Assembly: GCF_041248615.1 (NCBI RefSeq)
Contig: NZ_CP158426.1
Length of the DNA: 64,000 bases
Reading direction: 5' to 3' (one strand)
Origin: Escherichia coli
GTDB taxonomy: Bacteria > Pseudomonadota > Gammaproteobacteria > Enterobacterales > Enterobacteriaceae
In this document: in pieces, positions 9,001 to 45,000 of the stretch
Layout: each line of letters opens with the position of its first letter
How positions within the stretch are numbered: position 1 is the stretch's first letter
Position numbers: made by a program

Positions 9001-12000
9001 GCTACATTGAACGTATTCGGCGTAACGGGATTCTGGCAAATCCAGACGGTGATGCCGTGCTACAAATGGGCGATGAAATAGCGTTGGTAGGCTACCCCGA
9101 CGCCCACGCCCGACTCGATCCCAGTTTCCGTAATGGCAAAGAAGTTTTCGATCGTGACCTTCTCGACATGCGTATCGTCACTGAAGAAGTGGTCGTTAAA
9201 AACCATAACGCTGTTGGCAAACGCCTGGCACAACTGAAGTTGACCGATCACGGTTGCTTCCTTAACCGCGTCATACGTAGCCAGATTGAGATGCCGATTG
9301 ATGACAACGTCGTGCTTAACAAAGGTGACGTTTTACAAGTCAGCGGCGATGCCCGCCGCGTAAAAACCATCGCCGATCGCATCGGCTTTATCTCGATTCA
9401 CAGCCAGGTCACTGACTTGCTGGCATTCTGCGCCTTCTTTGTTATTGGGCTGATGATCGGGATGATCACCTTCCAGTTCAGCACATTCAGTTTCGGCATG
9501 GGGAACGCTGCCGGGTTGTTATTCGCCGGAATTATGCTGGGCTTTATGCGTGCTAACCACCCGACCTTCGGTTACATTCCGCAGGGTGCATTAAGCATGG
9601 TGAAGGAGTTCGGCTTGATGGTGTTTATGGCAGGCGTTGGTCTGAGCGCTGGTAGCGGTATTAATAACGGCCTGGGCGCGATTGGCGGTCAGATGTTGAT
9701 TGCCGGATTGATTGTCAGTCTGGTGCCAGTGGTTATCTGCTTCTTGTTCGGTGCTTATGTATTGCGAATGAACCGCGCACTGTTGTTCGGCGCAATGATG
9801 GGCGCACGCACCTGCGCGCCGGCAATGGAGATCATCAGTGATACAGCTCGCAGTAACATCCCGGCGCTGGGCTATGCGGGCACCTACGCAATCGCCAACG
9901 TCCTGCTGACGCTGGCAGGGACAATCATCGTCATGGTATGGCCAGGATTAGGATAAAACTGAAGTTGCCCTGAAAATGAAATTTTTTTGCACAACCGCAG
10001 AACTTTTCCGCAGGGCATCAGTCTTAATTAGTGCCACTGCTTTTCTTTGATGTCCCCATTTTGTGGAGCCCATCAACCCCGCCATTTCGGTTCAAGGTTG
10101 GTGGGTTTTTTGTTGCCTGAAATTTATGCCTTTTAAAATCATGATATTAGAAGCACTGTTTTTTAACGATGGCGACAAAATGGCGGCAGCGTCAAAGAGA
10201 GAGCGCCACCTGTCCTGATTTCATTGGATGCGGCTGAACCGGATTTGACTCTTTTGGCGTTGCAATCGAACGAACAAAAGTTTCATGGGTAACAAAAGTA
10301 TGGCTGCAGTTAATGTTCTGGCACTGGTTGTAACGCTCTTTGGTCAATGAAGATACCTGAAAACTGCTGCGAGTATGGGCGGCACTTCCACACAGTGGGC
10401 AAATCATCATTTTTCGAGTTCTCCCCATTTTTGCTAAATTCACAATAATGATACCGCATTATTCCATTTTGCAAACTTAAAAGTTCTCCATTGCGAAGAA
10501 TCATTCCATTTCGAAATCATCAATCCTCACTTCAAGCTCCAGACTGGTCGTAAAACCGTTATCCGGGCTGACGGTATGTGTCAGAGTCGTAATGGTCCAT
10601 TCCGCATCATCTATCGGCTGTTTAAAACCACTGACTTTCACTGGCATTTCCGTGTAGAGATCTGCCCGACCTTCCGCCAGTTGTAGCGAGAATGACGCAA
10701 CGCCGCGTTGCAGGCGTTCCCACTGCATTTTCGCTGCCCGTTCAGCGTTGCTCCGGTTGGCATAAGTGCGATTAAGTACCAGCACGTTTTCATCTGTACC
10801 CACCAGGTAATCGCCCTGCTTCGCTTCCGGCTCTTTCTTCTGCTTCTTAGTTCTGCGCTTACGCTTCACCGTTGTGCTTTCTTTCTTCGCGGGTTCGCGG
10901 GTATGCAACCAGCTGGCAATTACGCCCGTGTAGGCTCCGCGATCTGCCAGGGTAAATCGGTGACTGTCGCCGTCCTTGCGTGTGATAGTGATCACTGGCA
11001 GTGGTTTACCAGTGGCGCTTTTGCCCAGCCCCTGCCGGATGAATAACAGATTGCCATTTTTCACCGACGCGATGGCACCGTACTGTCGCGCCAGCCGCAT
11101 CAGAAAACTGCCGTCACTCTCATTAGTCTGGTCTATATGCTCCACGGGCTTATCCGACAGGTCTTTACCCAGTGCCATCTTCAGCTTGTGCCGCGCGGCT
11201 ATTTCCTTCACCACCTCCCCGATGGTGGCGTTATGCCACGATTTTTCACGGCGGGTATTCAGGGTTTCCCGAAAATCAGCACTTCGCGCCCGGATAGTCA
11301 GGCGGTCCGGTGCGCCAGTGTGTTCAATCTCGTCCACCGTGAATGCCCCTTTCGGGAAAAGCTGCTGCCCCTTCCAGCCCAGCGCCAGCGTAATGACCGC
11401 ACCACGGCGCGGCAGCGCTATTTTTCCATCGGCGTCGTCCAGCTCCAGATCAAGCTGGTCCGCTTCAAAGCCCCGGTTATCCGTCAGCGTCAGCCTCATC
11501 AGGCGGTTATCCAGCACAGTGGTGATATCCCTGCCCTCAATACTGATGTTGAATGCGGGAGTTTTGTTGCCTTTGCTAAGCAGTTCAGAGCTGAAATTCA
11601 CGACAGCAGCCCTCCCACCGTTTTACTGATATCACTTAAGGCAGATGTTGCCGTGTCCTGCAGATTATTCAGTTGCGTACTGAGATCACCGAACATATCG
11701 GACAGGGATTCATCCACCCGTTTGAGCGACAGGGTGAACTCAATCCGGCGCGGCATACCGTCGCGGAAAAACTCCGTTTTAGTCAGATTCAGTCCCTCAA
11801 TCACATACATGCCGTAAATCGTGCCGCTGCCTTCAATCAGGGGCCATGCTTTTCCCTGTTCTGCCATCTGCTCCAGAGCCAGCAACGACAGCCTGCCGCC
11901 CGTTATCTCCGGCATAAGAACACCAGAAAGCGTCAGCATGTCGTTGTCCGGTCCCAGAAACTGCGTGGACGGACGACGGTTTACCCGGCTGTTTGCCGCA

Positions 12001-42000: not shown

Positions 42001-45000
42001 ATTAAGGTTTAGATTGCATTCTGAAAGCGCATCAACGGTCATGGCTGCTATGTTGATCATCACTTTTTCGCGTTTTTTATCTTTGCGCAAACGGTGACGG
42101 ATAAGGCGTCCATCAGCCAACATGTCATTGATGGTATCGATGGACAGCCCTGTCAGCTCGCTATAGCGTTCAATAGTCACATGAGGCGTGGTAAGAGTGA
42201 TTGAAATGTTAGGTCTCATGATGCAACATTCCTCGTTTAATGATGATTAATCAGGACGAATACGGATCGTTTGTATTTTGTGAACACCATAAACATACGA
42301 TCGCACAATGAAATCGTCAAGACAAAAGTTCACTTGGAGTGACCATGAATTTGGAGAAAGGCGGACGAGGCGCTATAGAGCGCATGGTAGAAGCTTATGG
42401 ATTCAAGACTCGACAGGCGTTGTGCGATCATTTAGGAATCTCTAAAAGTACACTCGCCACACGCTACATGCGTGACTCATTCCCCGCAGAATGGGTAATC
42501 CAGTGCGCCCTTGAAACGGGCACCTCGCTTAATTGGCTCACAACCGGGCATGGTTCAAAGCAAACTTCAGGTAATACAAATACTATGGAAGTTGCTAAAT
42601 ATGTATTATCTGATGGGGCCTTGTGTGAAGACGGTTTTTATATTTTCGATAGGGGATTTCTACCGTCGGCATTCAAGAGTCTTTTTGTAATCACAGATAA
42701 TAATTCTGAATGTATTTGTGATAAGGAATTTGATGATATACGTGATGGTAAATGGGTAATAAGTATTGATGGTGAAATAACGATCCGTGACATTACTCGT
42801 TTACCCGGCGGAAGAATCTTCGTCGAGGGTGGAAACAGAGCGTTCGAATGCAAGATAGAAGACATTGAAATAATTGGTAAAATTATAAGTTTAACAGTCA
42901 AGTATGTTAAATAGTACCGGGAGGAAACTATGCTTGGTAAGGTATTTTTTGTGGTTTTGTCATGTTCTTTGTTATTAAACCCACTAACTACCTATGCTAG
43001 AAATTATCCCTGTTCAGGGAAAAAGGGAGGTGTTTCTCACTGTACCTCAGATGGCAAATTCGTTTGCAATGATGGAACTATTAGTAAATCCAAAAAAATC
43101 TGTACTAAAAACTCACGATAACTTTTGCTTTTATATCTGCGCCTAAAATAAAAATGAGCCGCAGGTTAACCGCAAAAGTTACATGCTCACATAGCAAAAA
43201 GAATAGCCAACTTAATTATGGCTTCAGTGAGATGTATGGTCGTAGGATTTCATACATTGACACTGGTTATACATACAGTGAAAATGCTCTCTACTGGAGG
43301 GCATTTTTTATGGCAGTACGAAAACTCACCACAGGGAAATGGCTTTGCGAATGTTACCCCGCCGGACGTAATGGGCGTCGTGTGCGTAAACAATTCGCCA
43401 CCAAAGGCGAAGCACTGGCCTTCGAGCGATACACCATGGGGGAAATAGAAGCAAAGCCCTGGCTGGGCGAATCAGTGGATCGTCGGACACTGAAAGATAT
43501 GGTTGAGCTATGGTTCAAATTACATGGCAAATCTCTTACTGCCGGACAGCATGTCTACAACAAGCTGCTGTTGATGGTTGACGCCTTGGGAAATCCCCTT
43601 GCAACTGATCTCACCTCAAAAATGTTTGCTCACTATCGCGATAAACGCCTTACTGGTGAAATCTACTTCAGTGAAAAATGGAAGAAAGGAGCAAGCCCAG
43701 TTACTGTTAACCTGGAGCAAAGCCATCTAAGCAGCGTTTTCAGAGAACTTTCCCGCCTGGGTGAATGGACACTTCCAAACCCATTAGAGAAGATGCGCAA
43801 ATTCACTATCGCAGAAAAGGAAATGGCATGGCTTACACATGAGCAGATTATCGAATTACTGTCTGACTGCAAACGTCAGAACCCAATTCTGGCACTGGTG
43901 GTAAAAATATGTCTAAGTACAGGTGCACGTTGGCGAGAAGCAATCAATCTTGCTCGCTCACAGGTCACCAAGTACCGAATCACCTTTGTGAGAACGAAGG
44001 GTAAGAAAAACAGAAGCATCCCTATCAGTAAAGAGCTTTATGAAGAGATAATGGCGCTCGATGGGTTCAATTTCTTCACAGACTGCTATTTTCAATTTTT
44101 ATCCGTGATGGAAAAAACGTCTATCGTTCTCCCTCGCGGTCAACTGACACACGTTCTGCGCCATACGTTTGCGGCGCACTTCATGATGTCGGGTGGAAAC
44201 ATCTTGGCCTTACAAAAAATTCTCGGACATCACGATATAAAAATGACTATGCGTTATGCGCATCTGGCACCGGATCATTTGGAAACGGCGCTCCGTTTCA
44301 ATCCACTGGCAACGTTACCAAATGGCGACAAAGTGGCGGCAGCGGTTGGCATTACCCCGTAATAACCACCACTGACCACCACATTAAGTTATTGTTTTTC
44401 ATCTAACTTATTGTTTTTATTAACCCATTTAGATAAGTGGGTTTTTTGTTATCTAAAATTTATCTACTACCCTGCAACCCTCTCAACCATCCTCAAAATC
44501 TCCTCGCGCGATAGCGGCTTACGGTCGGTGACAAAATGCAGCGTCATCCCCTCAATAAACGCATCAAGCGCGCGGGCGGTTCCGGGTTCAAACCATTGTT
44601 CGAGCGTTTGCTGACTGCGCTGCATCCAGTTTTGCATTACCGTTTTTAATAGCGGTTTTCGGCTAGCCAGCGCGTAGAGCTGATACATCAGCTCCATATT
44701 ATCCGGCGTTGCAACCTGTGAGCTGTAGATCATATCGGTGATAGCCTGGCATGCGCCTTGAGCATCACTAACATCGCTAAAAAATGCCTGATATTGCCGG
44801 GACATGATCTCAGTAAAACTGCTGAACGCCTCCAGCAACAACTCATCAATTCCTGAAAAATAGTAGGTCATCGATCCCAACGGTACCCCGGCAAGGGTAG
44901 CAATTTTGCGGTGCGTAACAGCATGTATTCCATAAAGTTTCACCGCCTCCAGCGTGGCCTGGATAATTTTTTCTCGCCGTTGCGGATCGTTAGCGCGACG

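Follow-up and report, generated by a model that had tools for sequence, protein, structure and literature searches.

P2-type prophages at the rybB site of Escherichia coli have been described before, as PhiECO1, PhiECO2 and PhiECO3 (Nilsson et al. 2011, PMC3448106) and as the "rybB ncRNA" prophages Rybb*W, Rybb*B and Rybb*Cr listed by Archer et al. (2011, PMC3032704). The site is also E. coli defence hotspot #29 (Hochhauser et al. 2023, PMC10121019), and P2 itself carries a cos-proximal defence hotspot, the old/tin locus (Rousset et al. 2022, PMC9122126). Our analysis of a 64,000-nucleotide stretch of E. coli DNA (the window) indicates that it very probably holds a temperate P2-family phage of ~34.3 kb at the 3′ end of rybB, integrated by recombination of a 14-bp core and carrying two 23-bp repeats inside the element as putative arm-type sites. 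About 21% of complete E. coli genomes have this integrase type at the rybB site, and in PhiECO1 of E. coli HS, which we checked directly, we find the same core, the same arm pairs and the same rcdA-int...ogr-ybjL layout. Given that P2-type/Felsduovirus rybB prophages are already published, the present prophage is largely ordinary, three rare candidate cargo genes apart. The phage functions apart from the three rare cargo genes are arranged as follows.

10192..10410, minus strand: ogr-type late activator, 72 aa (PHROG 603, 8e-30; 100% to the 4LV2017 protein, 55% to P2 Ogr)
10501..17338, minus strand: tail operon D, U, T, E/E', FII, FI (full-length PHROG matches; 96-99% identity at 100% coverage vs 4LV2017)
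17415..17432, no strand: Ogr-type box TGTACCGTTATTCACACA, upstream of FI
17481..18047, minus strand: Gin/Cin/Hin-type DNA invertase (PHROG 125, 1e-101; 86% to the Fels-2 invertase)
18115..19951, no strand: invertible tail-fibre segment between 15-bp inverted sites TTGGTTTGGGAGAAG (18115-18129 and 19937-19951)
19599..23423, minus strand: H, I, J, W, V baseplate and tail-fibre genes (PHROG and protein comparison)
24412..29843, minus strand: S, R, lysC, lysB, K, Y, X, L, M, N, O, for tail completion, lysis and head (PHROG)
29986..32780, plus strand: terminase large subunit P and portal Q (PHROG)
34045..34063, minus strand: cos cohesive-end sequence GGCGTGGCGGGGATACGAT, 16/19 positions as in P2/186 cos
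36564..37055, minus strand: SOS operon, with LexA box (37040-37055), 62-aa TumA-like ORF (36808-36996) and DinI-like TumB (36564-36797), 97-99% to the Fels-2 pair
37150..42219, minus strand: early lytic operon, with apl/cox-like, cII, fil, DUF5347, DUF2732, DksA-like, dam and replication protein A genes
42345..44362, plus strand: lysogenic operon, with cI (189 aa), a small ydcA-like cargo ORF (42930-43121) and int (43310-44362)

By sequence similarity this is an unremarkable Peduoviridae phage of the Fels-2/PsP3/4LV2017 clade, with ~94-96% nucleotide identity across ~84-87% of both element halves to relatives including 4LV2017. A preliminary description had called it a P2/186 hybrid, a label that misleads: its proteins are 94-100% identical to those of 4LV2017 for almost all genes and 80-97% to those of Fels-2, but only ~35-70% to P2/186, and because identity is high to the former pair and low to the latter we regard it as a Fels-2-like clade member and not as a P2 x 186 recombinant. 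The likeness to Fels-2 drawn in the same description holds, down to an identical gene order, and the inventory it gave was recovered at full length throughout: P2-order late block, Ogr-type activator, long CI, Cox/Apl-like protein, CII, Dam, invertase, integrase, and the tum-like locus it had described as SOS-controlled, here a DinI/tum-like locus with a LexA box. The late block is complete (Q P / O N M L X Y K lysB/C R S / V W J I H G / FI FII E T U D), each gene with a full-length PHROG match, and early and late genes reach ~100% coverage against 4LV2017 and Fels-2 with zero internal stops, so that the intact appearance ascribed to structural genes and integrase is borne out and completeness of the gene set is established.

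The V operon (23472-23489) and the P/O operons (29922-29939) have boxes near-identical to that upstream of FI; the TGT-N12-ACA pattern count in the window is not above chance, and the argument for the boxes is their position exactly upstream of F, V and P/O together with their mutual similarity. Ogr would switch on four late operons through these TGT-N12-ACA boxes, and packaging of DNA would start from cos, a sequence that is identical and equivalently placed in Fels-2, within a block (34036-34186) conserved in Fels-2, 4LV2017 and 186. The immunity region has the layout of a 186-type switch, with a long CI, CII, an Apl/Cox-like gene in divergent orientation, and int following cI. CII is 69% and CI 33% identical to 186; the Apl-like gene matches PHROG 575 (6e-31) and was not detected by tblastn against 186, and the gpA rolling-circle initiator matches PHROG 91 (2e-290). 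CI would repress apl, cII, A and the other genes of the lytic operon. The LexA box has three mismatches to consensus (186 p95 has two), the TumA-like ORF aligns with a score of 57 against 21±4 for shuffles, and the TumA/TumB operon, presumably LexA-controlled and a putative antirepressor locus, is the likely SOS induction route. Tum is split in two ORFs, as is native in Fels-2 and unlike the single 146-aa Tum of 186, and a role of this arrangement in SOS induction is assumed by analogy with Fels-2/PsP3-type phages.

The invertible segment contains two alternative H C-termini and two chaperones, and in E. coli NRZ14408, otherwise 100% identical, it lies in the opposite orientation, which establishes that inversion is live. 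Either orientation yields an intact H, of 466 or 501 aa. A serine invertase adjoins the segment, whose ends are inverted crossover sites and which is productive either way round; this is the arrangement of a Din-type switch, in which the Gin-type invertase would toggle between two tail-fibre tips.

The location between ybjL and rcdA given in the preliminary description is confirmed; the ends it placed at 10169-44344, on 23-bp repeats taken for att sites, move outward. On the left, the empty sites of K-12 NCM3722 and TUM14771 align to the window as far as ~10127; on the right, their alignment resumes at ~44437. Chromosome and phage meet at copies of a 14-bp core, giving a prophage span of ~10101-44450.

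10036..10114, plus strand: rybB sRNA gene, intact at attL (Rfam RF00110, 104 bits, model positions 1-79 of 79)
10101..10114, plus strand: attL core GTGGGTTTTTTGTT, the 3′ stem half of rybB plus U-tract, where the empty-site alignment ends/begins
10169..10191, plus strand: ogr-proximal 23-mer, tandem ATGGCGACA / ATGGCGGCA with 11-bp spacing, putative Int arm-type site
44322..44344, plus strand: int-proximal 23-mer, tandem ATGGCGACA / GTGGCGGCA, putative Int arm-type site overlapping the last int codons
44437..44450, plus strand: attR core GTGGGTTTTTTGTT, preceded by a phage-supplied hairpin (the terminator after int)

The core makes up the 3′-terminal 14 nt of rybB, positions 66-79 in the Rfam match (the true 5′ end of the RNA probably lies ~3 nt upstream of 10036). 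RybB at attL is identical to that of the empty-site strain TUM14771 and has one mismatch to K-12, and its terminator hairpin, at -22.7 kcal/mol, equals in value that of the empty site. The element belongs with phages that integrate at the 3′ ends of RNA genes, its core being identical to the RNA 3′ end and the gene being restored on integration. A virtual attP joined at the core occurs as one contiguous piece, at 100% coverage, in Klebsiella phage KP12, and the same core is annotated as att in 4LV2017. Junctions, rybB identity and attP contiguity are established by these data. Int, a tyrosine integrase, most likely recombines this core, which in attB comprises the U-tract and the 3′ strand of the RybB terminator stem and in attP the equivalent part of the phage hairpin downstream of int; after integration rybB is thus whole at attL, and int is followed by a terminator at attR. 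That rybB is the integration target had escaped the preliminary description.

The 23-bp direct repeat does exist at exactly the coordinates first reported, its copies one base apart and beyond chance expectation (0 matches in dinucleotide shuffles). It was read as the att core, duplicated on integration and marking the prophage ends, and a near-perfect repeat ~34 kb apart whose copies adjoin int and ogr respectively, where att sites are expected, lends itself to that reading; the empty-site comparison, set beforehand as the refuting test, goes against it and leaves it exceedingly improbable. The 23-mer and the 54 + 92 bp that lead to the core are missing from empty sites in 4291 genomes, and a virtual empty site built on the 23-mers measures 1623 bp against a real 1440 bp. 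This 183-bp surplus is the 54+23+92+14 bp of phage DNA between the 23-mers and the core, and the element therefore ends at the core. Moreover, KP12 carries both copies in one continuous attP stretch around the 14-bp core, and in Fels-2 the same motif pairs, TGGCG[AG]CA, surround another core, ssrA. PCR for attP/attB or delimiting from the 23-mers would set the junctions 68 and 106 bp too far inward, and reliance on them would overlook that rybB, the target rebuilt by the phage, encodes a sigma-E stress sRNA. Most likely, judging from motif and layout, the 23-mers are internal sites that bind the phage integrase. Each is a tandem pair of TGGCG(A/G)CA with 11-bp spacing, and in attP they lie 92 bp (int side) and 54 bp (ogr side) from the core, both inside the phage. 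The pairs match RARTGGCGRTR at 10/11 positions, and the best match to the published 186-type consensus tgccGCCActt, itself predicted, is the reverse complement of AAGTGGCGGCA at 11/11. Tandem pairs with 11-bp spacing on both sides of the core are also seen in the annotated Int arm sites of P2, of which the one nearest int overlaps the int 3′ end, and in the predicted ones of 186; mapped Int-binding annotation covers the P2 arm sites only, those in the 186 record and the 186-type consensus being predictions.

Since the right 23-mer lies within the int ORF, whose final codons run through it, one could instead suppose that the repeats are a by-product, the right copy kept as code for the Int C-terminus and the left a functionless relic of duplication or recombination. 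This is very unlikely: the int-proximal pair is unchanged across seven elements, and in E. coli HS and AR_0019 it is identical though a cargo ORF separates it from int and similarity (the conserved attP block) begins at the pair; the ogr-side copy is non-coding, yet kept in HS, 4LV2017 and KP12 with variation only outside the TGGCG cores; and P2, 186 and Fels-2 have an equivalent layout of pairs around the core. We found no Apl-box repeats common to attP and the switch region, and IHF-like sites in attP match the consensus only with one mismatch. As arm-type sites, the 23-mers, whose motif copies stand one helical turn apart, would be where Int docks through its N-terminal domain during intasome assembly, and they offer a clean, conserved example of (putative) arm-type sites for a 186-type integrase at a non-tRNA target. 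That the prophage is grounded, no longer excising or forming particles despite intact-looking ORFs, might be suspected from its Tum, in two ORFs relative to 186, and from the asterisk, of whatever meaning, borne by the P2-type rybB prophages of E. coli B, W and Crooks in Table 2 of PMC3032704. We consider this unlikely, as the late and early genes are complete and free of internal stops, the att cores, both arm pairs, cos, Ogr boxes and LexA box are all in place, the invertase is demonstrably active in the lineage, and the TumA/TumB split is the arrangement of Fels-2 itself. The prophage looks intact and is probably inducible.

Three ORFs in variable slots make up the rare cargo.

23519..24385, plus strand: cargo ORF, 288 aa, HEPN-like, in the P2 orf30 slot between S and V
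32833..33987, minus strand: RES cargo, 384 aa, Cys-rich in its N-terminal domain and ending in a RES domain of NAD+-consuming toxin type (Pfam RES 4.5e-18)
34350..36242, minus strand: KAP-family P-loop NTPase cargo, 630 aa (Pfam KAP_NTPase 1.3e-19; PADLOC PDC-S49 3e-156, full profile)

The RES fusion protein is the most interesting of these, the HEPN-like protein and the KAP NTPase being further candidates. It bears the R-E-S signature (R221/E242/S329 invariant) and the ART-like fold of RES toxins, its structure model (pLDDT 91) finding MbcT, RES-Xre and ParT as top Foldseek matches, and its gene has a GC content of 0.35. Beside the gene there is no Xre-type antitoxin and no small ORF on either side, the gene lying between Q and cos; instead of an adjacent antitoxin, the RES domain has a conserved Cys-rich N-terminal stretch, some 165-210 aa long, in the same polypeptide, and a RES-Xre toxin-antitoxin classification was rejected on these grounds. 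No PADLOC, PHROG or NCBIfam model matched the protein, which occurs as a stand-alone module in three different variable spots of P2-like prophages and in a Flavobacterium defence island. The literature searched held no mention of PDC-S49, and the RES + KAP NTPase combination is present in 2 of 5426 complete E. coli genomes. We tentatively suggest, as a possibility somewhat short of an even chance, that the prophage carries up to three single-gene anti-phage modules and that the RES protein could be a new self-guarded, NAD+-depleting abortive-infection system with its N-terminal domain as infection sensor. The three genes are cheap candidates for defence-system testing.

Published rybB-integrated P2-type prophages share the site and vary in defence cargo, and the combination of RES and KAP sets the present copy apart. 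As in the P2 hotspot, low-GC, rapidly exchanged cargo lies between gpA and gpQ, beside cos; in contrast to it, the element and Fels-2 have cargo flanking cos on both sides, RES and KAP being unvalidated candidates. KP12 has the contiguous attP; core and arm pairs are shared with it and with the Elveevirus 4LV2017, whose att annotation reads ATGGGTTTTTTGTTGCCTG and whose Int is 94% identical. The CI of 4LV2017 is only 47% identical, and because of this the two are probably heteroimmune; 4LV2017 also lacks the invertase, the invertible fibre segment (H 76%), RES, KAP and the orf30-slot ORF. Its own cargo is a retron-type RT with effector, placed at the cos hotspot, and a different ORF in the cI-int interval. 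Fels-2 (Felsduovirus) and PsP3 share the gene order including invertase, dam, split TumA/TumB and cos sequence, whereas the Int of Fels-2 is only 54% identical and targets ssrA instead of rybB, its CI is 40% identical and its cargo is different. With 186 (Eganvirus), finally, the element has in common the CI/Apl/CII switch type, a tum locus that is putatively LexA-controlled, tandem arm pairs and an Int of the same family (54-55% identity), although 186 is without dam and invertase. The 3′-end strategy at rybB is the one that Fels-2 uses at ssrA and 186 at tRNA-Ile, small structured RNA genes that are likewise restored when the phage inserts at their 3′ ends.

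Comparison of this prophage with empty ybjL–rcdA sites and with a related phage places its ends at a 14-bp core, GTGGGTTTTTTGTT, and not at the 23-bp repeats by which the preliminary description had bounded it. The repeat itself is real: the window contains exactly two copies of the pattern ATGGCGACAAARTGGCGGCAGCG, at 10169-10191 near ogr and at 44322-44344 near int, and shuffled sequence gave no match to it. When a virtual empty site, composed of a single 23-mer between the two flanks, was searched for in 5,426 complete E. coli genomes, 4,291 of them matched it in two pieces whose span was 1,440 bp where 1,623 bp was expected, and the 183-bp surplus (54 + 23 + 92 + 14 bp) is exactly the phage DNA from the 23-mers to the core. 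Alignment with the empty sites of K-12 NCM3722 and TUM14771 puts the limits of chromosomal identity at about 10127 (left) and about 44437 (right), with GTGGGTTTTTTGTT (attL, 10101-10114; attR, 44437-44450) as the sole sequence common to both junctions and the empty site; to its right, weaker similarity continues for another 17 bp. A virtual attP, made by joining the right and left ends at the core, finds one uninterrupted match between int and ogr of the Klebsiella phage KP12 (100% coverage, 95.4% identity), and in the Klebsiella phage 4LV2017 this same core carries the att annotation. The empty-site and attP comparisons thus rule out the 23-mers as att cores; since the first of these had been named beforehand as the comparison that could refute the repeats as junctions, the att claim falls. 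The element runs from about 10101 to 44450, which gives a phage genome of 34,336 bp.

The 23-mers are instead best explained as arm-type sites to which the prophage tyrosine integrase (Int) would bind. They flank the core in attP, at a distance of 92 bp towards int and 54 bp towards ogr, and each consists of two copies of (A/G)TGGCG(A/G)CA with 11-bp spacing. Like them, the arm sites annotated as Int-binding in the P2 record are tandem TGTGGACA-type pairs flanking the core on each side, the one nearest int overlapping the int 3' end, and the 186 record lists predicted arm sites (consensus YAYCGCCAYTY) as 11-bp-spaced pairs on both sides. Against the reverse complement of that predicted consensus the half-sites agree at 10/11 positions, and AAGTGGCGGCA matches the reverse complement of the 186-type arm consensus tgccGCCActt (Nilsson et al. 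2011, PMC3448106) at 11/11. Nearly the same pairs surround a completely different core in Fels-2, which fits an Int whose arm-binding N-terminal domain is conserved while its core specificity varies. The int-proximal pair and the next 60 bp are invariant in seven elements whose integrase genes are 88-100% identical. In E. coli HS and AR_0019 the pair is separated from int by a cargo ORF, and the sequence shared with the other elements starts right at the pair; a role in coding for the Int C-terminus therefore does not account for the conservation. The int-proximal attP arm also holds a direct repeat, A-N2-TTATTGTTTT(T), in two copies 19 bp apart (44384-44415). Conserved in 7 elements, it could be an IHF-like site (one mismatch) or an Apl/Cox site; a search for Apl boxes common to the attP arm and the apl–cI switch region found no shared 7-mers.

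The ORFs between the 23-mers match every P2 late protein over its full length and further encode an Ogr-type activator, a Gin/Cin-type invertase, a DinI-like protein, gpA, Dam, CII-like and Cox/Apl-like proteins, a long CI and a tyrosine integrase. All of the gene features in the preliminary description are present (P2-order late block, ogr-type activator, long CI, Apl, CII, dam, invertase and integrase); its reading of them as a P2/186 hybrid is not borne out. Compared gene by gene, nearly all proteins are 94-100% identical to those of 4LV2017 (Elveevirus); the figure is 80-97% for Fels-2 and only about 35-70% for P2 and 186, so that on protein identity we place the element in the Fels-2/PsP3/4LV2017 clade as an ordinary member and do not regard it as a P2×186 hybrid. 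The clade as a whole pairs P2-order late genes with a 186-type switch. Relative to 186, CII is 69%, Int 54-55% and CI 33% identical, and CI is only 40-47% identical to the CIs of close relatives, a divergence that suggests a distinct immunity type.

As the preliminary description had it, the structural genes and integrase look intact: internal stops and truncated alignments are absent from all genes. In the 100% identical prophage of E. coli NRZ14408, PGAP gives the tail-fibre gene H as the sole pseudogene, in two partial pieces, one of which it names 'integrase'. The sole difference between the window and NRZ14408 is an inversion of a segment of ~1,840 bp (18115-19951, 1 mismatch) bounded by the 15-bp inverted sites TTGGTTTGGGAGAAG. 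The fibre gene is intact in either orientation (466 or 501 aa) and has a separate chaperone after it in each; the pseudogene call can be dismissed, the flipped orientation being one intact 501-aa ORF. Because both orientations are found, each with an intact fibre gene, the invertase is active in this lineage.

Signals for packaging, late transcription and induction can also be recognized. The cos sequence GGCGTGGCGGGGATACGAT (34045-34063) matches P2/186 cos at 16/19 positions and sits in a block conserved in Fels-2, 4LV2017 and 186; Fels-2 has the same cos sequence at the equivalent place. Three near-identical TGTAYSG-N6-CACACA boxes, predicted to be late promoters, lie exactly upstream of F, V and the divergent P/O operons. 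A candidate LexA box, TACTGTAAATATAAACAGTG, departs from the consensus at 3 positions; behind it come an ORF of 62 aa, whose RBS is strong, and then a DinI-like ORF of 77 aa. The 62-aa product scores 57 against the N-terminal part of 186 Tum (shuffles 21 ± 4, with 0/500 reaching 57), and the DinI-like product is 40% identical to its C-terminal part. A frameshifted tum pseudogene is ruled out, since Fels-2 natively has the same split into TumA and TumB at 97-99% identity. We infer a prophage that looks functional and SOS-inducible.

The element is of low interest apart from its cargo of putative function. Four ORFs are missing from P2, 186, Fels-2 and 4LV2017, and three of the four are low in GC:

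23519-24385, plus strand: HEPN-like cargo, 288 aa, in the P2 orf30 slot; invariant Rx4H motif in the family
32833-33987, minus strand: RES cargo, 384 aa; C-terminal RES domain, Cys-rich N-terminal domain
34350-36242, minus strand: KAP-family P-loop NTPase; matches PADLOC candidate PDC-S49
42930-43121, plus strand: ydcA-like ORF, 63 aa, between cI and int; NCBIfam NF007463 above cut-off

The R-E-S residues of the RES protein and its Cys cluster at the N-terminus do not vary among 30 homologs, and the C-terminal half of the protein's structural model (pLDDT 91) matches the NAD+-consuming MbcT and RES and the ADP-ribosylating ParT. It lacks an antitoxin gene and any PADLOC, PHROG or NCBIfam match. 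Its homologs occur as single genes: some have other neighbours in the cos–Q slot, and others are found past int in a prophage of Yersinia, next to ogr in one of Proteus and in a defence island of Flavobacterium, that is, in three different variable slots of P2-like prophages as well as the island. We posit that it is a candidate single-gene NAD+-depleting defence. For PDC-S49 no mention was found in the literature searched; 'Reve', a single-gene KAP/ATPase system from a P4 hotspot, features in a 2026 preprint. Against 50,697 phage records, tblastn with the RES and KAP proteins returned only distant partial matches.

A reading of RES and KAP as one two-gene system was considered. The cos site falls between the genes (33988-34349), placing them at opposite genome ends in virion DNA, as it likewise falls between the two cargo genes of Fels-2. 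RES homologs stand without a KAP neighbour in four other contexts, and PADLOC counts PDC-S49 as a single gene. We reject the two-gene reading and, given the intervening cos, treat the two as independent cargo. The pair is found in only 2/5,426 E. coli genomes; others carry DarT/macro, DUF2971, HNH or other genes at the same position. The gpA–gpQ region is a published P2 defence hotspot (Rousset et al. 2022, PMC9122126), and a 2026 preprint covers other slots. The 288-aa orf30-slot protein, with weak HEPN fold matches, may be an RNase-type effector; it is common yet unannotated, its cluster lying on at least 1000 contigs. As other cargo in the cI–int or int–att slot, 4LV2017 has a 1050-nt ORF, and HS and AR_0019 have ORFs of 89 and 240 aa. 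Downstream of rimO, a lower-GC stretch (~55942-56647) holds a RelE/ParE-family toxin and HTH antitoxin pair, according to the annotation of the identical NRZ14408 sequence.

This integrase type is carried, at a coverage of at least 80%, by 1,133/5,426 complete E. coli genomes, in agreement with the ~1,131 that have a split ybjL–rcdA site. P2-type prophages at the 'rybB ncRNA' were described in E. coli W, B and Crooks (Archer et al. 2011, PMC3032704), and the integration site of PhiECO1 was defined by Nilsson et al. (2011, PMC3448106); in E. coli HS that site coincides with this locus and shares its core and arm pairs. The sole occupants of hotspot #29 are rybB-integrated Felsduovirus-type phages, in 109 genomes (Hochhauser et al. 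2023, PMC10121019). The element looks intact, and both its group and its integration site have been well described.

An Rfam scan finds the full-length RybB sRNA at 10036-10114 (RF00110, 104 bits, model positions 1-79 of 79), and the core is its last 14 nt, comprising the 3' half of the terminator stem and the U-tract; the label 'ybjL terminator' for the core hairpin was accordingly dropped. The attL copy of RybB does not differ from that of an empty-site strain and forms the same -22.7 kcal/mol hairpin, while the attR hairpin (AACCCA...TGGGTT plus a T-run, -9.4 kcal/mol) is supplied by the phage directly after int. With RybB intact at attL and the phage's own hairpin at attR, the phage therefore enters a small structured RNA gene, rybB, at its 3' end and rebuilds it. 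A tRNA scan found no tRNA genes in the element. The base before TGGG (10100, 44436) is G in both att copies here, A in both copies of HS and in the KP12 attP, and polymorphic in empty sites (G in TUM14771, A in K-12); this RybB terminator polymorphism might be a trace of phage integration and excision cycles. The same strategy of entering and rebuilding the 3' end of an RNA gene is followed by 186 at tRNA-Ile and by Fels-2 at ssrA.
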